From: Gemmatimonadota bacterium
Lineage (GTDB): Bacteria; Gemmatimonadota; Gemmatimonadetes; JACCXV01; JAHWKZ01
DNA length: 32,298 nucleotides
Direction: 5' to 3'
Assembly: GCA_046262555.1 (NCBI GenBank)
Contig: JBHENR010000028.1
Location: forward strand, 1 to 32,298
Shown piece by piece: positions 13,399-25,946 of this stretch (position 1 is its first letter; every line of letters begins with the position of its first letter). Both the position numbers and the translations under genes were made by a program. The notes below the pieces were generated by a model, which did not search any database, was not told the origin of the DNA, and saw only the letters and a list, made by a program, of their open reading frames with translations.

Positions 13399-15339
13399 TC
13401 AGCGGCCCGGAGGCGCTCCACACACCCACTCATAAGGCACCGGCCGCGCGGAAGGCACCAACCCACCCCGGTAGGTGTTTGAGCTGTCCGTGTCGGGGCT
13501 TTGATTCCCCGGCGACCGGCTGTACAAAATCCCCCCCGCATCCTCGTCGAAGCTGGTCAGCGCCATCGCCGAGATCGAAGGGGTCATCAAGCTCGGCGTC
13601 CGGCCGTCCATGTGGCCGAGCCCGAGCGCATGCCCCAGTTCGTGGCCAAGGACCGCGCCGCGGGAGGTCGCTGAGGTGCGGACCAGGCTGAAGCGGAGCC
13701 AGATGATACCGCTGGAGATGATCCGCGAGCCGTCCCAGAACGTGCGCGCCAGCCCCACGGTCCGGGGGCCGCTGTAGCGGCTGGCATTCTCATCGAAATG
13801 GATGACGATCGTTCCGGGTGTGCCGTCCGGCGGCGGCGCCGACCCGGCCGTCACCGAGGCGGCGTGGATCGCTCCGTTCGACCACCCCGCGATGTACCCC
13901 GCGACCGCGCCCTGGACCTGCGTGATCCAGGACGTGAGCTCGGCGCCGGCCGCGATGCCGGAGCCGCGGGTGTCGATGTAGACGGTGGGGTGAGCCATCC
14001 AGCGAATCGTGCGCGGCTCGTACTCCCGCGCGATGTCATTGAAGGCGGCCATGTCGAACGCGTCGGGAATCGCCGGCCAGCGCGAGTCGCTCGAGCGCGC
14101 GAAGGTCGTGCGGCGGTGCACGCCGGGGCCGCTGATCACGAGCGCGCGCAATGACCCGGAGGCGGTCCCGGGAACGGTGAACTGGCCGTTGGCGTCGGTC
14201 GTCGCGGTCGCGTCGGCGTAGGAAACCGAGACACCGGCCACGCCCGTGCCGGAGAACTGATCCACTACGCGCCCGGCCAGCGCGACCGTGCCCGTGGGCG
14301 GCGGGGGCGTCGGGGGTGGAGCGGTGGCGGTCACCGTCGCCGTCACGGGCACGGTCACCGCGCCGCCGTTGGATGTCAGCCGCACGATCGCGGAATGGGT
14401 GCCGGCGGCGAGGGTGCCGCGCGTCGCGGTGACGGTGAGCTCCTGCGTGGCGTGGGGCGCGATCGTGCCGGAATCCGGCGACCGGGTCAGCCAGGCCGCG
14501 CTGGCGGTGGCCAGCCAGTTCAACGGGCGGCCGCCTTCATTGACGAGCGTGACGATGCGGGTGGTTTCGGTGGCGCCGAAATCGAGCGGAACGGGCAGCG
14601 CGTGGAGCCGCGCGGGGGCGGCGACTTCGACCCGCAGGGCGACGGTGCCGGCCCCGCCATTGGAGGTCAGGGTGAGGGGGGCCTCATGCAGGCCGTCCGG
14701 CAGAGCGCCCCGCTGGGGGGTCACCGCGATCTGCGCCGTGGCGCCACCGGCGACGGTGCCGGCCGCGGGGCTGAGCGCGACCCAGGACGGACCGCTGAGC
14801 GTCCACGTGAGCGGCGCGGCGCCCGGATTCGACAGGAGCACCGTGGCGGTCGCGTCGTCGGGCGTGAGCGTCAGCACGCTGGGATCGAGGACGGCGAGCG
14901 GCGTGGCCGCGACGTCGGCTTCGACGGCGACGTCGAACGACCGGGCACCGAGCACGAAGCGCGCGCCTCCGCGATGGGTGCCGGCGGCGAGCCCCAGCCG
15001 GGTCACGCGCAGCCGGACGTCGGATTCTCCCGCGCTCAACGTTCCGCTGGTCGGCGTCGCGGTGAGCCAGGGAACGGAGAGCTCGAGCTGCCACGCCACC
15101 GGGGAGACGCCATGATTGGCGAGCCGCACGATCTGCTCATCGTCGGCCGGCTCGAACCGGATCGAGGTAGCCGAGACACCGACCCCGTCGGGGGTCCCGG
15201 GCGGATCAGACGGATCGTCGGGTCCCGCGGGCGTGTCTGGCTTGTCGCACGCGCTGAGGAAAAGCCCCAGCGCGACGGCGAGCGTCGGCAGCGAGCGCAG
15301 GGCCAGACAGAACCATAGGTAGGGTGAGCGCATCAGCAT
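13399..15339 (-). CDS. Secreted or lipoprotein metzincin metalloprotease with N-terminal Ig/BACON-like repeats
   Basis: 646 aa. Signal/lipobox: LAVALGLFLSAC. About four repeats of the type PLTWTLSGPSWVALSPAAGTV..GATAQIAVT. A CarboxypepD_reg-like segment follows (LAGRVVDQFSGTGVAGVSVSY..TDANGQFTV). The C-terminal zinc site is HELGHALGLGH (HExxHxxGxxH), with a Met-turn candidate SLMTP. Confidence 0.8.
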   Translation of the reverse strand: MLMRSPYLWFCLALRSLPTLAVALGLFLSACDKPDTPAGPDDPSDPPGTPDGVGVSATSIRFEPADDEQIVRLANHGVSPVAWQLELSVPWLTATPTSGTLSAGESDVRLRVTRLGLAAGTHRGGARFVLGARSFDVAVEADVAATPLAVLDPSVLTLTPDDATATVLLSNPGAAPLTWTLSGPSWVALSPAAGTVAGGATAQIAVTPQRGALPDGLHEAPLTLTSNGGAGTVALRVEVAAPARLHALPVPLDFGATETTRIVTLVNEGGRPLNWLATASAAWLTRSPDSGTIAPHATQELTVTATRGTLAAGTHSAIVRLTSNGGAVTVPVTATVTATAPPPTPPPPTGTVALAGRVVDQFSGTGVAGVSVSYADATATTDANGQFTVPGTASGSLRALVISGPGVHRRTTFARSSDSRWPAIPDAFDMAAFNDIAREYEPRTIRWMAHPTVYIDTRGSGIAAGAELTSWITQVQGAVAGYIAGWSNGAIHAASVTAGSAPPPDGTPGTIVIHFDENASRYSGPRTVGLARTFWDGSRIISSGIIWLRFSLVRTSATSRGAVLGHELGHALGLGHMDGRTPSLMTPSISAMALTSFDEDAGGILYSRSPGNQSPDTDSSNTYRGGLVPSARPVPYEWVCGAPPGR

Positions 15340-15616
15340 CCTGTCGATCGTGAAGGTAGGGAGTCGGCCCGCGGTCTGCCGGGTCTACTGCACTCCCCGT
15401 ACCACCGCGGGGGGAGCCGCCGCCCGCGAATCCCAGGAGAACAGGCCCGAAACCCCCCGCGCCCGGAAAAGTCGGGGTGGGAAGGGCTCGAGCGGTCATG
15501 GGGGCCCCCCGGACGGCTTCTCATGAACCCCGCAGGAGAAGCCGGGGTTCATTATTGTGGCCTCGCGCAGGCAAAGAAAAGCGCTTCCGGAGGGGCGGTT
15601 TCGAGGCCCCGCCGCC

Positions 15617-15645
15617 TTGCCCTCCCGCGAAACGCCTGTTACGAT
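15617..15645 (+). promoter_or_regulatory. Candidate sigma70-type promoter TTGCCC-17 nt-TACGAT for the trp leader
   Basis: TTGCCC at 15617-15622, a 17 nt spacer, and TACGAT at 15640-15645. This is a sequence match only. Confidence 0.3.
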
Positions 15646-15656
15646 GAGCGCCGATC

Positions 15657-15731
15657 ATGACCAACGTCCTCGCCCGCCCGACTGTTCTTTCCGCAACCCG
15701 CTGGTTTACGTCGTGTGGGGGCAGCGGGTAG
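15657..15731 (+). CDS. Candidate trp leader peptide (24 codons, one Trp codon)
   Basis: ATG 15657 gives MTNVLARPTVLSATRWFTSCGGSG, ending at TAG 15729-15731. The Trp codon is at 15702-15704, inside the 5' arm of a possible stem (15696-15703 pairing with 15722-15729). An alternative 41-codon ORF in another frame (15644-15766) has two Trp codons. The ORF is too short for the track. Confidence 0.3.
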   Translation: MTNVLARPTVLSATRWFTSCGGSG

Positions 15732-15756
15732 CGGGCGTTTTTCGTCCGGTCGCCTG

Positions 15757-15793
15757 GCCCGCCTGAAGCGATTCAGGTGGGCTTTTTTGTTTT
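15757..15793 (+). terminator. Intrinsic terminator or attenuator 17 nt upstream of the trpE start codon
   Basis: An 11 bp stem, GCCCGCCTGAA (15757-15767) pairing with TTCAGGTGGGC (15772-15782), with one G.U pair. The loop is the GNRA tetraloop GCGA. TTTTTTGTTTT (15783-15793) follows. The SD GGGAG (15800-15804) and the ATG at 15811 come immediately after, leaving no room for a promoter. Confidence 0.75.
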
Positions 15794-15810
15794 CAGCCCG
15801 GGAGCCTGTC

Positions 15811-17184
15811 ATGGTATCACCGCTGGAAATCGCCGCCGATCTCGACACGCCCGTCTCGGCGTTTCTCAAGCTGGCGGCCTTCGAGCCGTCGTTCCTGCTG
15901 GAGAGCGTCGCGGGCGGGGAGCAGGCGGGGCGCTACTCGTTTCTTGGTCTCGGCGCGCGCTCCCGAATCACGCTCGAAGCGGAGACGCTCGAGGTCGACG
16001 GCCGCTCCCTCCCCACCGGGGGCGATCCCCTCGGCGCCCTGCGCGGGTGGCTGGCGGCGGCCGCGTTGCCGATGGCCGCGGCGCTCCCGCGGGGGCCTGT
16101 GGGCCTGGTGGGGTACGTCGGGTACGAGGCGGCCGGCTGGTTCGAGCGGTTGCCCGCTCCGGCACGGGTCGCGGGCGCCCTCCCGACCGCCGCGTTCGTC
16201 GTGCCCGCGGCCCTGCTCGTGTTCGATCACGTGCGGTCCACGCTGCGCCTCCACGCCCTGACGGCGGAAGACGAGGCCCGGGCGCTGGCGCGGGAGGTGG
16301 CGCAGGCGCTCCGCACCGGCACCCCGGCGCCGCCCGCCGGACGGGCCAGCACGCCGCCCCGCGCGAGCCGCGACCAGGCGGCCTTCGAGCAGGCGGTGGG
16401 GCGCGCGCAGGAGCACATCCTGGCGGGGGACGCCTACCAGATCGTGCTGTCGATCCGCTTCGAGGGCGAGACCGAGGGGGATCCGTTCGCCGTGTACCGC
16501 GCACTCCGGCGGCTGAATCCCTCGCCCTACCTCTATTACCTGAAGGCCGGCGGCGCGGAACTGGTGGGCTCGAGTCCGGAGGCGCTCGCCCGCCTCGAAG
16601 GGCGCCGCGCGACGCTGCGGCCCATCGCCGGCACGCGGCCGCGGGGCGCCACCCCCGACGAGGATGCGGCGCTCGCCGCCGAACTGCAGGCCGACGCCAA
16701 GGAAAACGCCGAGCACACCATGCTGGTGGACCTGGCGCGCAACGACCTGGGACGGGTGGCGGCCCCGGGAACGGTCGCGGTCACGGCGCTCAAGACCGTC
16801 GAGCGGTACTCCCACGTCATGCACCTCGTCAGCACGGTCGAGGGCGTGCTGGCGCCCCACGCCGACCAGTTCGATCTGTTCCGGGCGGCGTTCCCCGCCG
16901 GCACCGTGACCGGCGCGCCGAAGATCCGCGCGATGGAGCTGATCCACGAGCTGGAGGGCGAGCCGCGTGGTCCCTACGCCGGATCGGTCGGCTACTTCGG
17001 CGCCGACGGCAGCATGGACCAGGCGATCGCCATCCGCACGCTCGTCTTCCACGACGGCCGCTACAGCTTCCAGGCGGGGGCGGGCATTGTCGCCGACAGC
17101 GTGCCCGAGCGCGAGCACGCCGAGGTGCTCAGCAAGGGCCGGGCGCTGGCGCGCGCGCTGGAGATGGCGGGGGAACCGGCGTGA
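15811..17184 (+). CDS. trpE: Anthranilate synthase component I
   Basis: 457 aa from the internal ATG with an SD. LLES motif (SFLLESVAGGEQAGRYSFLG), NPSPYLYY, and the chorismate-binding C-terminus (GTVTGAPKIRAMELI...RGPYAGSVGYF). trpG is adjacent. Confidence 0.9.
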   Translation: MVSPLEIAADLDTPVSAFLKLAAFEPSFLLESVAGGEQAGRYSFLGLGARSRITLEAETLEVDGRSLPTGGDPLGALRGWLAAAALPMAAALPRGPVGLVGYVGYEAAGWFERLPAPARVAGALPTAAFVVPAALLVFDHVRSTLRLHALTAEDEARALAREVAQALRTGTPAPPAGRASTPPRASRDQAAFEQAVGRAQEHILAGDAYQIVLSIRFEGETEGDPFAVYRALRRLNPSPYLYYLKAGGAELVGSSPEALARLEGRRATLRPIAGTRPRGATPDEDAALAAELQADAKENAEHTMLVDLARNDLGRVAAPGTVAVTALKTVERYSHVMHLVSTVEGVLAPHADQFDLFRAAFPAGTVTGAPKIRAMELIHELEGEPRGPYAGSVGYFGADGSMDQAIAIRTLVFHDGRYSFQAGAGIVADSVPEREHAEVLSKGRALARALEMAGEPA

Positions 17185-17759
17185 CCACGCGCGTTCTCGT
17201 CGTCGACAACTACGATTCGTTCACCTGGAATCTAGTGCAGGGACTGGCGGGCGACGGCCGCAAGGTAGTTGTGCGGCGGAACGACGCGATCACCGCCGAC
17301 GCGGTCGGCGCGCTCGAGCCGACCCACATCGTGATCTCGCCCGGGCCCGGCCGGCCGGAGCAGGCGGGCGCGACGTGCGCGATCATCGCGGCGTGGGGGC
17401 ACCGGCTGCCGCTCCTCGGCGTCTGTCTGGGACACCAGGCGATCGCCCACGTCAACGGCGGCCGGGTCGAGCGCGCGCCGCGCGTGGTCCATGGCCAGGC
17501 TTCGCGCGTCTATCACGACGGCCGAACGCTGTATGCGGGCGTCGCCAATCCGCTGAACGCGGGCCGCTACCACTCGCTCCTCGTCAGCGAGCGGGGCCTG
17601 CCGGCGGGCCTCGAGGTCGCCTCCTATACGCCCGAGGGCGAGATCATGGGATTGCGCGTGGCGGGGACCCGGATGGAAGGCGTACAATTCCACCCGGAAT
17701 CCATCCTCACGCCCGATGGCCCGCGGCTGCTGGGCAACTTCCTGCGAGAGGCGCGGTGA
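17181..17759 (+). CDS. trpG: Anthranilate synthase component II (glutamine amidotransferase)
   Basis: VLVVDNYDSFTWNLVQ, the catalytic Cys in LLGVCLGHQAI, and GVQFHPESILT. The GTG start overlaps the trpE stop as GTGA. Confidence 0.9.
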   Translation: MTTRVLVVDNYDSFTWNLVQGLAGDGRKVVVRRNDAITADAVGALEPTHIVISPGPGRPEQAGATCAIIAAWGHRLPLLGVCLGHQAIAHVNGGRVERAPRVVHGQASRVYHDGRTLYAGVANPLNAGRYHSLLVSERGLPAGLEVASYTPEGEIMGLRVAGTRMEGVQFHPESILTPDGPRLLGNFLREAR

Positions 17760-18147
17760 GCGCGCAACCGACCACGATCGTGGGGATCCGGGGCGCCGTC
17801 CAGGCGACCGCCGACACCGCGGCGGCGATCGAGGGAGCCACGCGCGAGCTGCTGTTCGCGATGGTGGCGCAGAACCGCGTGGACCCGGCCGCGATCGTCG
17901 CGCTCTGGCTCACCCAGACGCCGGACCTGACCGCCGCCCACGCCCCTGCGGCGGCGCGCGGACTGGGGTGGACGTGGGTGCCGCTCCTCGGCGCGCAGGA
18001 GGCGCCGGTGACGGGCCAGCTCCCGCGCGTGGTGCGCGCGCTGCTGCTGGCGCCGCGTAGCGACTCCGCCAGCGCCGTCCGTCACGTGTACCTGGGCGCC
18101 GCCCGCGTGCTGCGGCCCGACTGGAGCGAGGAGGACCCGGAGTCCGC

Positions 18148-18151
<4 letters not shown>
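17756..18151 (+). CDS. aroH: Chorismate mutase, AroH class
   Basis: 131 aa. It matches the B. subtilis AroH pattern as I recall it: IVGIRGAVQ, TQTPDLTA, GWTWVPLLGAQE, VTGQLPRVVRALLL, RHVYLGAARVLRPD. GTGA overlap with trpG. Confidence 0.85.
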
Positions 18152-19173
<1,022 letters not shown>

Positions 19174-19192
19174 CCGGGGCATCCACCGCGCC

Positions 19193-20476
19193 GTGAGCCG
19201 CGTGCGGCTCGAACCGCTGGGCACGGTGCGCGTGCGATTGACGGTGCCGGGCGACAAGTCGATCGCGCACCGGGCGCTGCTGCTCGGGGCGCTGGGGGAA
19301 GGCGTCTCGGCCGTACGGGGCGTGCCCGGGGGCCAGGACGTCGCGTCCACCGCGGCGGCGCTGGCGGCCCTCGGTGTCCGGGTCGATCGCGGCGGCGCGG
19401 ACGGGGAGGTCCGGGTAACCGGTGGGGGGGCGTGGCGCGCGGCGGCGGCGCTCGACTGCGGCAACTCCGGCACCACCGCGCGGCTGCTGCTGGGCGTGCT
19501 CGCGCCCCGGGCCGCGGCGCCGGTCACGCTGACGGGAGACGATTCGCTCCGCCGCCGCCCGATGGGGCGGGTGGTGACGCCGCTGACCGCGATGGGGGCG
19601 GCGATCGAGGGTTCCGCGGAGGGGAACCGGCTGCCGCTCACCGTGAAGGGGCGGCCGCTTCGCGGCGCGCTCCACCGGTTGCCGGTGGCGAGCGCGCAGG
19701 TGAAGTCGGCGCTGCTCCTGGCGGGGCTGGCGGCCGCCGGCGAGACGGTAGTGGTCGAGCCGGGCGCCAGTCGCGATCACACCGAGCGGCTGCTGGCCGC
19801 GATGGGAGCCGACCTGTCGGTCGAGCCCGGCCGGGTCGCGGTGCGCGCCGGGCCGCTGGCCCCGTTCCAGCTCACCATTCCCGGCGACTTCTCCTCGGCC
19901 GCGCCGCTCTTGGCGATGGCCGCCGCGCGGCCGGGGAGCGAGGTAACCGTGGATCACGTTGGACTCAATCCCACCCGCACCGGATTTCTCGACATCCTGC
20001 GCGCCTTTGGCGCCGAGGTCGAGACCCGCCTCGACGAGGAATCGCCGGAGCCGCGCGGGACGGTCCGCGTGACGGGGCGCGCCTTGACCGGCATCGCCGT
20101 CGATCGGGCGCTCGTGCCGCGGGCGATCGACGAGCTGCCCCTCGTCGCAGTGCTCGGCACCCAGGCCCGTGGTGAGACGCGCGTCAGCGGCGCGGCCGAG
20201 CTGAGGGTCAAGGAGAGCGACCGGATCGCCGCCATGGTGGAGGGATTGCGACGGCTGGGCGCGGCGATTGATCCCACCCCCGACGGGTTCCTCGTCGCGG
20301 GCCCGTCGCCGCTGACCGGGGCCGTCCTCGACGCGGCGGGGGACCACCGGATCGGCATGGCGCTGGCGGTCGCCGCCGCGCTGGCCCCAGAGCCGAGCAC
20401 GCTGACCGGCGCCGAATGGGTGGATGTCTCGTTTCCCGACTTCTTCCGCGCGCTCGCCACCTGCGGCGCCGCATGA
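19193..20476 (+). CDS. aroA: 3-phosphoshikimate 1-carboxyvinyltransferase (EPSP synthase)
   Basis: 427 aa with [60 protein letters not shown] and [13 protein letters not shown]. Confidence 0.9.
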
Positions 20477-21297
20477 CCGCCCGGTTGCAACTCGCCATCG
20501 TGGGCTGGCCGGTGGGGCACAGCCTGAGCCCGGCGCTCTGGGAGGGAATGGGCGCGCGGCGCGGAATGGTGATCGAGTATGGCCGCTATCCGATCACTCC
20601 CGGCGACGACGCGGCCTGGTCGGCGCTCTGGAGCTCGGACCTGGCGGGATTCAACGTCACCGCGCCGCACAAGGAACGGGCGGCCGAACGGTGCGCCACG
20701 CTGGGTCCCCTCGCCGCGCGCATCGGCGCGGTCAACACCGTGGTGCGGCGCGGCGGCGCCTGGGAGGGCCACTCGACCGACGGGTACGGGTTCGTGCGCA
20801 GTCTGCTGGCCTCCGGCGAGCGGATCCGCGGCCGCTGGATGGCTATCCTCGGTACCGGCGGCGCGGGCCGGGCGGTGGCGTGCGCGGCGCTGGACGCCGG
20901 CGCCGACGTCGCGCTGATCAGCCGCACGCCCGCGCGCGACGCCCCCGGCTGCGAGGCGTGCGAGCGGCTGTCGTGGGACGCGCTCACGCATTCGGGACCG
21001 TTCGACATCGTGGTCAACGCGACGCCGCTCGGCCGGTCAGGGGACGACGCGCCGCCCTTGCCGTATGCCTGCTGCGCCGACGCGCTGGCGGTGGACCTGA
21101 ACTATACCCCTGCGGCGACGCCCTTCCTCCGCGCCGCGCGGATGGCCGGCGCGCGGACGCTCAATGGGCTCGGCATGCTGGTCTATCAGGCGTGCCTTGG
21201 CGCCGCGCTCCTGCTCGACGGCGATCCCTCGGCTGCTGAGATGTACGAAGAGGATTTCTGGGCCACCGCGCGGCAGCTGCCGCAGTGGCGGAGCTGA
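20473..21297 (+). CDS. aroE: Shikimate 5-dehydrogenase
   Basis: SLSPALW, FNVTAPHKE, IGAVNTVV, TDGYGF, and a Rossmann motif ILGTGGAGRAV. ATGA overlap with aroA. Confidence 0.85.
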   Translation: MTARLQLAIVGWPVGHSLSPALWEGMGARRGMVIEYGRYPITPGDDAAWSALWSSDLAGFNVTAPHKERAAERCATLGPLAARIGAVNTVVRRGGAWEGHSTDGYGFVRSLLASGERIRGRWMAILGTGGAGRAVACAALDAGADVALISRTPARDAPGCEACERLSWDALTHSGPFDIVVNATPLGRSGDDAPPLPYACCADALAVDLNYTPAATPFLRAARMAGARTLNGLGMLVYQACLGAALLLDGDPSAAEMYEEDFWATARQLPQWRS

Positions 21298-22514
21298 TGT
21301 GGCGCTACCTCACCGCGGGCGAGTCGCACGGCGCGCAGCTGCTGGGCATCCTCGCAGGGCTGCCGGCGGGCGTTCCGCTCGTCCCGGCCGATATCGACGG
21401 CTACCTCTGGCGGCGGCAGGGCGGGGCGGGCCGCGGCGCGCGGATGCGGATCGAGCGCGATCGGGTGGCGATCATGGCCGGGGTCTGGCAGGGGTTGACC
21501 AGCGGCACGCCGCTCGGTCTGACCATCACCAACCGGGGCGCCATACCGCAGGCGAAGCAGCCGCGGCGCACCGTGCCCCGGCCGGGCCACGCCGACTTGA
21601 CCGGCATGCTCAAGCACGGCTTCGACGATGCCAATCCCGCGATCGAGCGGGCATCGGCGCGGGAGACGGCGATGCGGGTCGCGCTCGGCGCGGCGGCGCA
21701 GACGTTTCTGCGCGCGCTGGGGATCGGCGTCGCGGGGCATGTCGTGGCGGTGGGCGGCGTCTCCGCCGCGCTCCACGGCGACGACTGGGATCGGCGGCTG
21801 GCCGCCCGCGACGCGTCGCCGCTGGCCTGCGCCGATGCCGCCGCCGAGGCCGAGATGCTGGCCCGGATCGACGAGGCCAGGTCCCGCAAGGAAACCCTGG
21901 GCGGCGTGGCCGAGGTGGTCGCCCTCGGCGTGCCGCCCGGCCTCGGCTCGTACGCCCAGTGGGATCGGCGACTCGGCGCCGAGCTGGCGCGCGCACTGGC
22001 GTCCATCCCGTCGGTGAAGGCGGTGGCGGTGGGGGACGCGCTGACGACGTCGGCGGGCTTCGGCCGGGACGCGCAGGACGAGCTGTTCTGGGACGAAGGG
22101 GTCGTCCGGCGGACGAATCACGCCGGTGGCCTGGAGGGGGGCATCACCAATGGCGCGTCGCTCGTGCTGCGGGCGTTCTTCAAGCCGATCCCCACCCAGC
22201 GGCGGCCGCTGCGATCGGTAGATCTGGCCACCGGATCCGAGGAGGAGTGCCGGTACATCCGCTCCGACACGCTGGTCGTGCCGGCGGGCAGCGTCGTCGC
22301 CGAAGCGATGGTCGCGCTGACGCTGGCCGGCGCGGTGGTCGAGAAGTTTGGCGGGGACTCCCTGGCTGACACGCGCGCCGCGTTCGCGGCGTACCTGGCG
22401 CGGATCCCCTGGCACCAGCCGGAGCTGCCCGAAGCGCTGCGCGCGGCCTCGGCGGCGCCGGCGGACGCCGGGGGCCCGGCGCCGGACGGCGCGGCGTCGA
22501 CCGAAGAGGAGTGA
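21297..22514 (+). CDS. aroC: Chorismate synthase
   Basis: MWRYLTAGESHG, RRQGGAGRGARMRIE, RPGHADL, RASARETA, GGLEGGITNG and IRSDTLVVPA. The ATG shares one base with the aroE stop (TGATG). A GTG at 21285 is an alternative start. The C-terminal ~45 aa form an Ala/Pro-rich extension. Confidence 0.9.
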   Translation: MWRYLTAGESHGAQLLGILAGLPAGVPLVPADIDGYLWRRQGGAGRGARMRIERDRVAIMAGVWQGLTSGTPLGLTITNRGAIPQAKQPRRTVPRPGHADLTGMLKHGFDDANPAIERASARETAMRVALGAAAQTFLRALGIGVAGHVVAVGGVSAALHGDDWDRRLAARDASPLACADAAAEAEMLARIDEARSRKETLGGVAEVVALGVPPGLGSYAQWDRRLGAELARALASIPSVKAVAVGDALTTSAGFGRDAQDELFWDEGVVRRTNHAGGLEGGITNGASLVLRAFFKPIPTQRRPLRSVDLATGSEEECRYIRSDTLVVPAGSVVAEAMVALTLAGAVVEKFGGDSLADTRAAFAAYLARIPWHQPELPEALRAASAAPADAGGPAPDGAASTEEE

Positions 22515-24154
22515 TGGAGCGCTCGCGCGTTTTTCTGGCGGGATTGTCGGGCGTGGGAAAGTCCTCCATTGCGCGCCGGCTCGCGGCCTGGCTCGGCTGG
22601 CCGGCCCACGACGTGGATCGCGAGGTCGAGCGCGCCACCGGCGCCTCCATCGCGGAGCACTGGCGGACCGCTGGTGAGCCGGCCTTCCGCGCGGCGGAGC
22701 GGGACGCCATCGCCCGGTTGACGGCGCTGCCGGGATCGGGGGTCATCGCGCTGGGCGGCGGCGCGCTGGAGGATGCGGCGAGCGCGGCCCGGCTGGCGGC
22801 CTGGGGATGCGGCGTCTTTCTCGACGCGCCGGTCGAGACGCTGGCGCGGCGGGTGACGATGGCCCGGGGCCCGGCGGCCCGGGGCGAAGGGAGCGGGCGC
22901 CCATTGCTCGAAGCCGGCGATCCGCTCGAGGTGCTGGGCGCGCTCGCCGCCCGCCGTGCCGCTGGATTCGCGGCGCTGCCCCATCGGGTGAGCGCAACCG
23001 GCGCGTCGGCCGCGGCGGTCGCGGTCGAGGTGCTGCGGGCGCTGGAGTGGCCGGCCCCCGAGCCGGTGGCCGACGGAGTCTGGCTGGGGCGGAACGCGCT
23101 CGCGCACGCGGGCGCGGTGCTGGCGCGGGGCGGCCCCACCGAGGGCCGGTCCGCCGGGCTCACACCGCTGGTTGTAGCGACCGACGCGCGGGTTTGGGCG
23201 CTCCACGGCGATCCGCTCCTGCGCGGTCTCGTCGCCGCCGGCTGGAACCCCGCGCCCTGTCCGCTGCCCGCTGGCGAGGCGGCCAAGCGGCCGGCCGGTC
23301 TGGTGCGCGTCTGGGATGCCCTGGCGGCGGCCGGGGCGGAGCGCGACTCGCCCTGCGCCGCCCTCGGCGGCGGGGCGGTCGGCGACGTGGCGGGTCTCGC
23401 CGCGGCGACCTTCAAGCGAGGACTCCCGCTCACCCTCTTTCCCACCACGCTGCTGGCCCAGGTGGATGCCGCCATCGGCGGCAAGAACGCGATCAACCTG
23501 GCCGGGGTCAAGAATCTGATCGGGACGTTTCATCCGCCGGCCACGGTCGTGAGCGACTCGCTCTGCCTCCTGACGCTGACCGCGCGCGCCTACCGCTCGG
23601 GCTGGGCCGAGGTCGTCAAGACGGCGGTGCTGAACGACCCGGATCTGCTCGCCCTCTGCGAGCGGGAGCCCACCGCGATCCGCGCCCGCCGGCTCGAGAT
23701 CGTCGAGGAAGCCGTGGCGCGGGCGGCGCGGGTGAAGAGCGCCGTCGTCGCCACCGATCCGCGCGAGGCGGATGAGCGCCGCCGGCTCAACCTCGGCCAT
23801 ACGTTAGGGCACGCTCTCGAGGCGGCGTCCGGCGGCGCGCTGACCCATGGCGAGGCGGTGGCGATCGGCCTCGTCGCCGCCGCGCGGCTGAGCGCGGAGC
23901 TGGGTGTGGGGGCGCCCGACCTGGCCGATCGCCTGGCCGCCGCGCTGGTCGGGCTCGGGCTTCCGGCCCGCGTGCCGGAGGCGGCGCCGCCCGCGGCGCG
24001 CGACCCCGAACAACTGCTGGCCCTGATCGGCCACGACAAGAAGCGCCGCGGCGGGCAGCTGCACGTCGTGCTGCCGGTTCGTCCCGGCGAAACCATCATT
24101 CAGCCGGTCGCCGGCGACGTGCTCCGGCGCTGGGTCGAGGAGGCGGTGCGATGA
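22511..24154 (+). CDS. aroK-aroB: Bifunctional shikimate kinase / 3-dehydroquinate synthase (AroK-AroB fusion)
   Basis: The N-terminus carries a P-loop, FLAGLSGVGKSSIARRLA, plus DVDREVE. The C-terminal ~370 aa carry LGGGAVGDVAGLAAATFKRGLPLTLFPTTLLAQVDAAIGGKNAINL and LNLGHTLGHALE. The start is either GTG 22511 (GTGA overlap with aroC) or ATG 22514. Confidence 0.9.
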   Translation: MMERSRVFLAGLSGVGKSSIARRLAAWLGWPAHDVDREVERATGASIAEHWRTAGEPAFRAAERDAIARLTALPGSGVIALGGGALEDAASAARLAAWGCGVFLDAPVETLARRVTMARGPAARGEGSGRPLLEAGDPLEVLGALAARRAAGFAALPHRVSATGASAAAVAVEVLRALEWPAPEPVADGVWLGRNALAHAGAVLARGGPTEGRSAGLTPLVVATDARVWALHGDPLLRGLVAAGWNPAPCPLPAGEAAKRPAGLVRVWDALAAAGAERDSPCAALGGGAVGDVAGLAAATFKRGLPLTLFPTTLLAQVDAAIGGKNAINLAGVKNLIGTFHPPATVVSDSLCLLTLTARAYRSGWAEVVKTAVLNDPDLLALCEREPTAIRARRLEIVEEAVARAARVKSAVVATDPREADERRRLNLGHTLGHALEAASGGALTHGEAVAIGLVAAARLSAELGVGAPDLADRLAAALVGLGLPARVPEAAPPAARDPEQLLALIGHDKKRRGGQLHVVLPVRPGETIIQPVAGDVLRRWVEEAVR

Positions 24155-24585
24155 ATATCCTGGTGCTCAGCGGCCCGAATCTCAATCGACTGGGGGACCG
24201 CGACCCCGCCCTCTACGGCACTGCATCATTGGCCGACGTCGAGACCGCCTGCACATCGATGGCGAAAGAGCTGAAGCTACAACTCGAGTGGTATCACTCG
24301 AACCATGAGGGGGCGCTGATCGACCGGCTCCAGGCGCGCGCCGCGACCGCGTCGGGCGCGCTGCTGAATGCGGGCGCGCTCACCCATTATGGCTATGCGC
24401 TGGCCGATGCGGTGCGGGACTTCGGCCGTCCGGTGGTGGAGGTCCACTGCTCGAACGTCCACGCGCGCGAGGCGTGGCGGCGCCACTCGGTGCTCGCGGC
24501 CGCCTGCGCCGGCGGCGTGTACGGCTTCGGCGGCGACAGCTATCGGCTGGGACTCCAGGCGCTGGCGCGGCTGTTGGGGCGGTGA
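24151..24585 (+). CDS. aroQ: 3-dehydroquinate dehydratase, type II
   Basis: 144 aa with ILVLSGPNLNRLGDRDPALYG, SNHEGALID, NAGALTHY and VEVHCSNVHAREAWRRHS. ATGA overlap with aroK-aroB. Confidence 0.95.
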   Translation: MNILVLSGPNLNRLGDRDPALYGTASLADVETACTSMAKELKLQLEWYHSNHEGALIDRLQARAATASGALLNAGALTHYGYALADAVRDFGRPVVEVHCSNVHAREAWRRHSVLAAACAGGVYGFGGDSYRLGLQALARLLGR

Positions 24586-25946
24586 CGCCACCGCGCGCCG
24601 CCCGGCCGGGACCCGCCAGCCGCGCGCTCGCCGCCCGCGGCGCCCGCCGCGAGCCGGCGCCGCTGCTGGGAATCATGGACGGCACCCCGCCGATCGCCTG
24701 GGCGCGGGCGCGGGGTGCTGTCGTCGAAGACGTCGACGGCAACCGATATCTCGACCTGACCGGCGGTTTCGGCGCCGACCTCGTCGGCCACGCCAACCCC
24801 CGCGTCGTCGCCGCCGTCCGGCGCGCGGCTGGGCGGCTGCTGCATGGCCTGGCCGACGCCGCGCCCCACCCGGAGCGCGTTCGGCTGGCGGAGGAGCTCG
24901 CGGCGCGGGGCCCCTTCCGCGGCGGCATGGTCCACTTCGCCAGTTCCGGCGCCGAAGCGGTGGATATCGCCCTCAAGACCGCCTCCCTCGTCACCGGGCG
25001 TCCCGGCGTGGTCGCCTTTGACGACGGATATCACGGCACCAGTCTGGGCGCATTGCGGGGAACGGGCCGGGCGGCGTTTCGCGAGCCCTTCAAAGCGCTG
25101 CTGGCGCCCACAACACTGCGCGTGCCGTTCGCCGACTGCTTTCGCTGTCCGTATCGGCTCACGTGGCCGGCCAGTGGCCTCGCCTGTCTCGCCGCCGCGC
25201 TCGCCGAGATCGATGCCTGGAACGCCGACTCCGCCCGTCCGCCGCTGGGGGCCTGGATCGTCGAGCCGGTGATCGGCCGGGAGGGGTTGATCGTGCCGCC
25301 GCCGGGATTCCTCGCCGCGCTGGGCCGCGCCGCCCGGGCGCGGGGGCTCCTCGTCATCGCCGACGAGATCCTGACCGGCGGCGGCCGCACCGGCCGGTGG
25401 TGGGCGAGCGGGCCACTGAAGCCCGACCTGGTCATCGTGGGGAAGGGGATCGCCGGGGGGATGCCGCTGGCGGCGGTTCTCGGCCCCCGCCGCGTGCTCC
25501 GCATCTGGAACCGTCCCGGCGAGGCGCTGCATACGACGACCCACCTGGCGCACCCGCTGGCGGTCGCCGGGGCGCGCGCCGCGCTGGCCGAGATCGCCCG
25601 GCGCGACCTGCCCGGCCGGGCCCTGGCGATCGGCCGGCGGCTGGCGGCCGGCCTGTCGCGGCTCCAGCAGCGACACACCGCGCTCGGCGATGTGCGCGGC
25701 GTCGGCGCGATGTGGGGCCTCGATCTGGTGACGGACCGCGCTTCGCGGGCGCCCGATCCGGCGACGGCCGCGGCGGTCGCACGGGGACTGGCTGCGCGCG
25801 GCTGCCTGGCGCTCGCCGCCGGCCGCCACGGCAACGTCATCGCGCTCACGCCGCCGCTCACGATCTCGCGGCGCCAGCTCGACGCCGCGCTGGCCGCGCT
25901 GGACGGTGCCCTCAGCCAGCTCGACCACGGCCCCGGTCGCCGGTAA
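24582..25946 (+). CDS. Class III PLP-dependent aminotransferase, substrate unknown
   Basis: DVDGNRYLDLTGGFGADLVGHANP, FASSGAEAVDIALK, DDGYHGTSLGAL, IVEPVIGREG, LVIADEILTGGGRTG, and the catalytic Lys in VIVGKGIAGGMP. The GTG at 24582 overlaps the aroQ stop as GTGA. An ATG at 24675 is an alternative start. Confidence 0.85.
   Translation: MTPPRAARPGPASRALAARGARREPAPLLGIMDGTPPIAWARARGAVVEDVDGNRYLDLTGGFGADLVGHANPRVVAAVRRAAGRLLHGLADAAPHPERVRLAEELAARGPFRGGMVHFASSGAEAVDIALKTASLVTGRPGVVAFDDGYHGTSLGALRGTGRAAFREPFKALLAPTTLRVPFADCFRCPYRLTWPASGLACLAAALAEIDAWNADSARPPLGAWIVEPVIGREGLIVPPPGFLAALGRAARARGLLVIADEILTGGGRTGRWWASGPLKPDLVIVGKGIAGGMPLAAVLGPRRVLRIWNRPGEALHTTTHLAHPLAVAGARAALAEIARRDLPGRALAIGRRLAAGLSRLQQRHTALGDVRGVGAMWGLDLVTDRASRAPDPATAAAVARGLAARGCLALAAGRHGNVIALTPPLTISRRQLDAALAALDGALSQLDHGPGRR

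Follow-up and report, generated by a model that had tools for sequence, protein, structure and literature searches.

The control region upstream of trpE was analyzed in a metagenome-assembled genome (MAG; 86% complete) of an uncultured soil Gemmatimonadota bacterium, on a contig stretch of 32,298 nucleotides (nt) with a G+C content of 71.8%, the whole of which is referred to here as the window. The trpE product is a 457-amino-acid (aa) anthranilate synthase component I (Pfam and NCBIfam), the single TrpE encoded in this genome, and its N terminus aligns with the TrpE of relatives. Between a predicted promoter and trpE lie a short leader open reading frame (ORF), a candidate antiterminator, and an intrinsic terminator, which together probably constitute a classical ribosome-mediated leader-peptide transcription attenuator, one of a leader family conserved in a single family of uncultured Gemmatimonadota. 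The features of this region, ending with the Shine-Dalgarno (SD) sequence and start codon of trpE, are as follows.

15617-15645, + strand: predicted sigma-70-type promoter (-35 TTGCCC at 15617-15622, 17-nt spacer, -10 TACGAT at 15640-15645)
15657-15731, + strand: leader peptide ORF, 24 codons plus TAG, encoding MTNVLARPTVLSATRWFTSCGGSG
15671-15695, + strand: region 1, putative anti-antiterminator 5' strand, C-rich (CGCCCGCCCG...CCGCA), predicted to pair with 15714-15737 in untranslated RNA
15702-15707, + strand: remaining putative regulatory codons TGG TTT (Trp16, Phe17), aligned with the aromatic cluster of relatives
15714-15737, + strand: region 2, putative antiterminator 5' strand, G-rich (TGTGGGGGCAGCGGGTAGCGGGCG), running across the TAG stop and placed by homologous columns and the best duplex
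15751-15767, + strand: region 3, terminator 5' arm (15756-15767) plus 5 nt upstream, common to antiterminator and terminator
15772-15793, + strand: region 4, terminator 3' arm TTCAGGTGGGCT (15772-15783), overlapping the T-tract TTTTTTGTTTT (15783-15793), from a terminator scan
15800-15804 and 15811, + strand: SD sequence GGGAG and start codon ATG of trpE, read from the sequence

The terminator hairpin is composed of the 5' arm GGCCCGCCTGAA (15756-15767), a GCGA loop (15768-15771), and the 3' arm (15772-15783), with 12 pairs including two G-U pairs and a free energy of -21.9 kcal/mol. The 11-nt T-tract ends 17 nt before the trpE ATG and 6 nt before its SD sequence; considering the G+C content of the window, it is unusual for a 12-bp stem to be followed by 11 nt so rich in T, and the 17-nt gap leaves no space for a promoter. 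Thus, a terminator directly before trpE and the lack of a promoter between the two, as held in the original prediction, were both confirmed, with the stem now counted as 12 pairs (15756-15783). Across 17 to 23 relatives the terminator was kept and showed covariation, and the RNAalifold consensus contained it with changes on both sides at three pairs (AU/GC, CG/UA, and AU/GC).

Upstream of the terminator, the leader ATG lies 11 nt after the -10 box, which leaves no space for an SD sequence, suggesting that the leader ORF is leaderless or nearly so and that transcription probably starts a few nt before the ATG at 15657. A simple consensus scan did not report this promoter, and its assignment relies on a geometry common to relatives (TTGACG/TTGACC, N17-18, TAnnnT, 7-11 nt to ATG, without SD) that was seen in 19 of the 20 leaders tabulated, while the 20th (L013), judged by eye, fits if an upstream in-frame ATG is taken as its start.

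The leader family in related genomes

Orthologous TrpE proteins (70-76% identity) were found in 16 genomes of the same family, belonging to four other genera, among 60 related genomes searched; more relatives came from metagenome contigs and assemblies, giving a total of 22 with TrpE identities of 68-77%. The leader-terminator-trpE arrangement was present in every relative with upstream sequence. Their leader ORFs comprise 20-25 codons, including 4-8 Phe/Tyr/Trp codons, an enrichment with binomial P values of 1e-5 to 3e-2 against the 4.8% aromatic background of the operon's proteins; examples of the encoded peptides are MRDTFDRGAFFFTGCWWSRPPVGAV, MRPTTRPAPAFFFTGWYFNPRVGGV, MISRRASWYAFIWWYSPSVGGV, and MTANARRYFSFTWYREGGGV. 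Alignment gaps inside the ORF were all multiples of 3, while those beyond the stop were of any length. The frame and the TAG stop column were common to all 17 leaders of the first alignment (18 codon columns up to the stop), and the stop column was identical in all family members, the window ORF being orthologous in frame and stop to those of the 22 relatives. Moreover, aromatic positions swapped among TTC, TTT, TAC, TAT, and TGG. Such interchange, together with the multiple-of-3 indels and the fixed stop column, indicates that selection has acted on decoding and not just on the RNA sequence.

The 24-codon ORF (15657-15731) with its TGG at 15702-15704, recognized previously from the window alone, is therefore present and conserved in frame, length, and stop column. 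Its TGG TTT aligns with the W-W/W-Y/W-F cluster of relatives, and the W-F-T codons (TGG-TTT-ACG) are identical to those of locus L018. The column preceding the window's TGG reads CGC in the window, CGG in L010, and TGG in relatives, and the Phe/Tyr block of relatives corresponds to T-V-L-S in the window. There, GTTCTTTCC (15684-15692) resembles the relatives' Phe run TTCTTCTTTACC, but it is out of frame and read as V-L-S. By its sequence, the window copy is thus the most degenerate member of the family, with Trp-Phe only and the Phe/Tyr block lost. The original prediction had described a Trp sensor: the window leader does have one Trp codon, but it also keeps a Phe codon, and the sensor of the family would read Phe, Tyr, and Trp. 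A second ORF that had been considered as a leader (15644-15766) exists but was rejected, since its ATG falls within the conserved -10 hexamer and the ATGs at this site in relatives vary in frame and are mostly followed by a stop after 5 codons.

In all 23 leader ORFs of the family, the stop codon is TAG and the next nucleotide is C (window 15729-15732; columns 76-79 of A1 and 79-82 of A2). In the operon of the window, TGA is the stop of nine of the ten genes and TAA of the other; TAG also closes the unrelated Trp/Phe leaders L020, L139, and L115. One possible reason for the conserved TAG-C is a slow-terminating stop context that keeps the ribosome over region 2, and another is an RNA pairing constraint.

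A covariance model (R1) was searched against 401 Gemmatimonadota genomes, and its full-length matches were the window's family and one Phe leader (G133). The remaining matches were rejected, being the ends of ordinary genes in which GTGTAGCG is combined with a terminator. The window's MAG was also scanned crudely, genome-wide, for more leader-peptide attenuators, and all candidates proved to be false positives.

Across lineages, leader codon content tracked operon content, which is the pattern expected of regulatory codons. In the window's family, mixed Phe/Tyr/Trp leaders precede trpEG, chorismate mutase, and common-pathway aro genes. In other Gemmatimonadota families, Trp-only leaders (MKRLSMAPSMHESTSSWWWWRDPRPEVASA and ...GNGWWAWWWPG...) precede trpE-G-D-C-F-B-A followed by 3-deoxy-D-arabino-heptulosonate 7-phosphate (DAHP) synthase; these WWWW and WWAWWW leaders (L019/L210, G043:C5; L020/L211, G037:C105) are accompanied by terminators, and the last gene of their operons encodes a DAHP synthase with a ferredoxin-like domain. 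The Phe-only leader of G133, MNAAARRAFFFSFSLPHPGENGGA (FFFSF), precedes a chorismate mutase/prephenate dehydratase gene.

Some of these loci have further features of their own. In G043, trpD, trpC, and trpF share a single open frame of 963 aa (L210:6109-9000), suggestive of a trpD-trpC-trpF fusion. The G133 leader (L115, G133:C4, ~1470-1640; gene from 1666) has a leaderless-type promoter and a terminator, and the gene product extends from chorismate mutase through prephenate dehydratase to a C terminus that matches DAHP synthase, so the gene may be a three-domain fusion. An apparently leaderless Trp leader, MHTPASMTQQWWWPCGFGFAGRDVL, with a terminator was also observed upstream of a 48%-identical trpE on a metagenome contig (L139, JAEEGL015652556.1).

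Candidate antiterminator pairing and RNA folding

The antiterminator was evaluated across the family as pairing between the ORF 3' end (GGTGGGCGCC, columns 63-72) and the terminator 5' arm extended upstream by four nt (GGCG-A-CCCACC, columns 108-118). In these helix columns, 91% of cells pair, versus 34-51% with the partner slid by 1-3 columns, and none of 500 shuffles attained this percentage. Compensation was observed as CG/GC at 71:109 (8 versus 5 sequences), with AU supplied by the window at 70:110, and in L212 a one-base shortening was matched in region 2 (GGGTGG-CGG), region 3 (GACCACCCGG), and region 4 (CCGGGTGGT). Moreover, the duplex of the last 33 ORF nt with the terminator arm beat dinucleotide shuffles in 16 of the 22 relatives (P ≤ 0.06). 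Conservation and covariation analysis in related genomes thus found the leader ORF, the terminator, and the antiterminator to be kept.

In the window, the homology-supported antiterminator 5' strand is placed inside the 3' end of the ORF (GGGGGCAG, 15717-15724), and the best predicted duplex joins GCGGGU-AG-CGGGCG (15724-15737) with CGCCUGGCCCGC (15751-15762) over 12 bp (-21.7 kcal/mol). The antiterminator proposed originally, GCGGGC (15731-15736) with GCCCGC (15757-15762), stands in that both blocks are present and GCCCGC is used as a partner, but the register is shifted and the strand backed by homology lies in the ORF 3' end. Two GCGGG blocks in region 2 match the terminator arm after its A-to-G change (CCCACC to CCCGCC), a match that could reflect compensation or chance. 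The case for the putative leader and antiterminator of the window rests on homology with the relatives.

The full window leader folds with a minimum free energy of -62.8 kcal/mol (z = -2.1). The region 1 pairing is specific to the window and mostly missing in relatives. A different hairpin had been suggested between ACCCGCTG (15696-15703) and CAGCGGGT (15722-15729); both blocks are present, but the hairpin lacks comparative support and was rejected, the equivalent pairing of TGGTGG with CCACC being found in one genus only and without covariation.

Ribosome positions were modeled by folding the nascent RNA up to the terminator loop with all sequence through 12 nt past the A-site codon masked. 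For the window without a ribosome, none of the 11 terminator-arm nt was paired upstream and region 1 sequestered region 2. With the A site on TGG, 7 of 11 arm nt were paired upstream, compared with 4 of 11 for a stall on TTT and 4 of 11 (-6.9 kcal/mol) for a ribosome at the stop. Across the leaders, most aromatic-codon stall positions gave 6-10 of 11 arm nt paired upstream, while with a ribosome at the stop the arm could pair upstream only weakly (-0.5 to -6.9 kcal/mol, versus -18 to -22 kcal/mol for the terminator), leaving the terminator free to form and favored.

Proposed mechanism and competing explanations

In the proposed mechanism, transcription would start a few nt before 15657, and the 24-codon ORF would be translated as a leaderless or near-leaderless message. 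With charged aromatic tRNAs plentiful, the ribosome would reach the TAG (15729-15731) and cover region 2 (15714-15737); the terminator (15756-15783 plus the T-tract) would then form, and transcription would end ~17 nt before trpE. A ribosome stalled at TGG/TTT (15702-15707) would leave region 2 free to pair with 15751-15762, permitting read-through into the ten-gene operon and production of the enzymes making chorismate, anthranilate, and prephenate. If the leader was not translated, region 1 (15671-15695) would sequester region 2 and termination would prevail. The leaders of relatives, with 4-8 Phe/Tyr/Trp codons, would integrate all three aromatic amino acids, and the window copy would be expected to respond mainly to Trp, and weakly. 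From these sequences we infer translation of the leader ORF and amino-acid-dependent read-through, and conditional read-through at a leader-peptide attenuator, as originally proposed, is supported by the 22 relatives in frame, promoter, terminator covariation, and antiterminator compensation.

Several observations on the window copy weigh against this interpretation. Only 2 of its 24 leader codons are aromatic (P = 0.30 against the same background), the fewest of the 23 leaders, and modeling indicates that sensitivity is low when the fraction of regulatory codons is small (PMC1183508). The window antiterminator was no better than dinucleotide shuffles, either for the part within the ORF (P = 0.84) or with the part after the stop (P = 0.14), indicating that G-rich composition alone suffices for such pairing. 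When the mask was replaced by a 30-nt footprint, the C-rich block 15671-15680 of the window re-paired with region 2 and the antiterminator was absent, while relatives still switched; if RNA 5' of a stalled ribosome can pair, recapture of region 2 by this block could lock the terminating state. Equilibrium folds including region 4 favored the terminator every time, so switching is not visible in them and read-through would depend on kinetics. In addition, no genome of the same genus was found, the nearest TrpE being 77% identical among 5.8 billion proteins, and metagenome contigs provided no locus with upstream DNA closer than the known relatives.

Considering these points, the main live alternative, although rather unlikely in our judgment, is that the attenuator has decayed, i.e., that it descends from the aromatic leader family and no longer senses amino acids, its terminator working as a partial, constitutive stop and keeping the basal level low, with any regulation of the operon coming from the promoter or from enzyme feedback, e.g., through the ferredoxin-like domain of DAHP synthase. 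The scarcity of aromatic codons (2 versus 4-8), the resemblance of the out-of-frame GTTCTTTCC to the Phe run TTCTTCTTTACC, the shuffle-level antiterminator, and the strong window-specific 1:2 pairing, which could keep region 2 even during a stall, are all in line with such decay. However, ORF length, promoter-start spacing, stop column, W-F-T codons, and terminator have been retained even though the nearest TrpE is only 77% identical; the CCCGCC change is matched by the two GCGGG blocks, yielding a 12-bp antiterminator of -21.7 kcal/mol that equals the terminator in strength; and an unrelievable 12-bp terminator with an 11-nt T-tract before the sole anthranilate synthase and the whole shikimate pathway would be costly. 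The reduced copy in the window may plausibly retain a regulatory role, exerted mainly through its single Trp codon. It is possible, and offered tentatively, that its input specificity is being rewired: a three-input Phe/Tyr/Trp leaderless leader would have been narrowed in the window's genus to Trp (plus weak Phe), with indels putting the Phe run out of frame, the antiterminator re-matched through the two GCGGG blocks to the CCCACC-to-CCCGCC arm, and a new anti-antiterminator added.

Control by something other than a ribosome (a T-box, a TRAP-like protein, a riboswitch, or another RNA-binding factor), with the short ORF incidental, appears very improbable. Conservation of the leader RNA at the nucleotide level too (GGTGGGCGNCGTGTAGC) would suit it, and single-sequence folding cannot tell the mechanisms apart, but ORF indels in multiples of 3, the fixed stop column, interchanging aromatic codons, and a leader codon content that follows operon content across lineages argue for decoding. 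Searches for such elements were also negative: no Rfam family matched at the gathering score in the window or in eight related loci; at E ≤ 10 over 15300-15900, no leader family was found and matches were chance ones only (e.g., anti-hemB at 24.8 bits versus a 49.5-bit cutoff); the T-box (RF00230) had no match in the window or the whole genome, while controls detected the family; and a TRAP gene (PF02081) was not found in this 86%-complete genome. The only (G/U)AG triplet in 15650-15800 is the stop codon itself, and so the view taken previously that neither a T-box nor a TRAP-type triplet array is present was upheld. We regard it as hardly credible that the hairpin and T-tract merely end a separate upstream transcript (a small RNA or small-protein gene) with trpE transcribed independently. 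Attenuation would yield a stable RNA of ~140 nt, and functions in trans are described for the trp attenuator RNA and peptide of Sinorhizobium (PMC6614838 and PMC7298713). Yet the 17 nt to the trpE ATG (6 before the SD sequence) accommodate no promoter, leader, terminator, and trpE stay together in every relative with upstream sequence, and a function in trans would add to attenuation, not replace it.

Ribosome-mediated attenuation as proposed here resembles the trpL leader of Escherichia coli and Salmonella (Yanofsky model, RF00513) in its short ORF with a Trp codon, its intrinsic terminator directly before trpE, and its predicted mutually exclusive 1:2 (anti-antiterminator), 2:3 (antiterminator), and 3:4 (terminator) pairings, in which a ribosome at the stop would mask region 2. 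Unlike trpL, the window leader has no sequence or structure similarity to RF00513, its ORF lacks an SD sequence and begins 11 nt after the -10 box, being probably leaderless, and it has one Trp and one Phe codon rather than two tandem Trp codons; moreover, the ribosome would stall in the loop joining regions 1 and 2, whereas the trpL stall site is inside region 1, and it would control trpEG, the whole shikimate pathway, and chorismate mutase, as opposed to trpEDCBA. Multivalent attenuators are known, the E. coli thr leader sensing Thr and Ile and the ilvGMEDA leader sensing Leu, Val, and Ile. The leader peptides of the relatives similarly combine codons for more than one end product of a branched pathway (Phe, Tyr, and Trp), although the pathway is a different one and the window copy has nearly lost this multivalent character.

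The nearest functional precedent for control of the aromatic pathway by a mixed leader is, by analogy, the aroR leader (Phe-Tyr-Phe) of Corynebacterium glutamicum, which precedes aroF and responds to Phe (Neshat et al. 2014, as summarized in PMC11802643). On the basis of that summary, aroR and the putative attenuator here have in common their placement before common-pathway (DAHP synthase) genes, mixed aromatic codons, a high-G+C host, and leader peptides from leaderless (here, probably leaderless) transcripts, whereas aroR belongs to another phylum with no detectable homology and is described there with Phe and Tyr codons, compared with Phe, Tyr, and Trp in the Gemmatimonadota family and Trp-Phe only in the window. 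The operon of the window in addition carries trpEG and aroH along with seven more genes. Leaderless leader peptides are known in Deinococcus deserti, including one for trpEGD, their starts having been mapped by differential RNA sequencing (PMC4007540); as in the putative leader of the window, the start codon of the trpEGD leader is at or near the transcription start without an SD sequence, before an anthranilate synthase operon with a predicted attenuator. The window start, by contrast, is deduced from conserved promoter spacing, and the leader sequences are unrelated.

The mechanism itself is already known, and the novelty lies in a new attenuator member in Gemmatimonadota, a phylum to which textbook ribosome-mediated attenuation would thereby be extended; a full-text literature search found no paper joining Gemmatimonadota with leader peptides and attenuation. 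At the family level, leader codons (Trp-only, Phe-only, or mixed) match the products of the downstream operons, and a single leaderless mini-ORF may govern the common aromatic pathway as a whole. These leaders are without an Rfam model, and a new RNA family could be founded on the covariance model of this study. Marking both the leader ORF and the attenuator in the annotation of these MAGs would also be worthwhile. As a degenerate member, the window copy may show how sensors decay or are re-tuned, and rewiring, if true, would be a natural example of attenuator specificity and basal level evolving on a kept scaffold.

The downstream operon and its surroundings

The original prediction had concerned trpE, which does lie directly downstream of the terminator; the target, however, is not trpE alone but a ten-gene aromatic operon, which was annotated with Pfam and NCBIfam as follows.

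15811-25946, + strand: putatively controlled operon of ten genes
15811-17184, + strand: trpE
17181-17759, + strand: trpG
17756-18151, + strand: aroH, AroH-type chorismate mutase
18148-19173, + strand: DAHP synthase with a ferredoxin-like domain
19193-20476, + strand: aroA
20473-21297, + strand: aroE
21285-22514, + strand: aroC
22511-24154, + strand: aroK-aroB fusion
24151-24585, + strand: aroQ
24582-25946, + strand: class III aminotransferase

The starts and stops of these genes overlap or nearly abut, no convincing internal terminator or promoter was found within the operon, and the gene order trpE-trpG-aroH-DAHP synthase-aroA is kept in relatives. In genus g7 (L032-L035 and L214), ~200-600 nt separate trpE from trpG, while in the window the two overlap by 4 nt; in the sole such gap inspected, that of L032 (4350-4955, ~570 nt), no convincing ORF was found, only Arg/Pro/Gly-rich frames typical of high-G+C noise.

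Elsewhere in the window's MAG, trpD, trpC, trpF, and trpB occur together on contig C39 and trpA on contig C226, apart from trpEG. No leader, terminator, or attenuator was found upstream of trpDCFB on contig C39, and the putative attenuator thus controls only the first step of the Trp branch. The prephenate dehydratase gene on contig C260 (minus strand) has no attenuator upstream either; it is preceded by TTGACT-N17-TATGCT with an ATG 8 nt later, a spacing from the -10 box like that of the leaders, and no SD sequence, and ordinary genes of this MAG may also be leaderless.

On the other side of the leader promoter, a divergent gene for a BACON-repeat/metzincin lipoprotein (13399-15339, - strand) is syntenic in the closest relatives (L212-L214), which marks the intergenic region as a conserved divergent promoter region. 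At 15507-15552, in the stretch that separates this gene from the leader promoter, are interleaved inverted repeats, CGGCTTCTC/GAGAAGCCG and ATGAACCCC/GGGGTTCAT; they lie ~65 nt before the -35 box and fall outside the predicted leader transcript.

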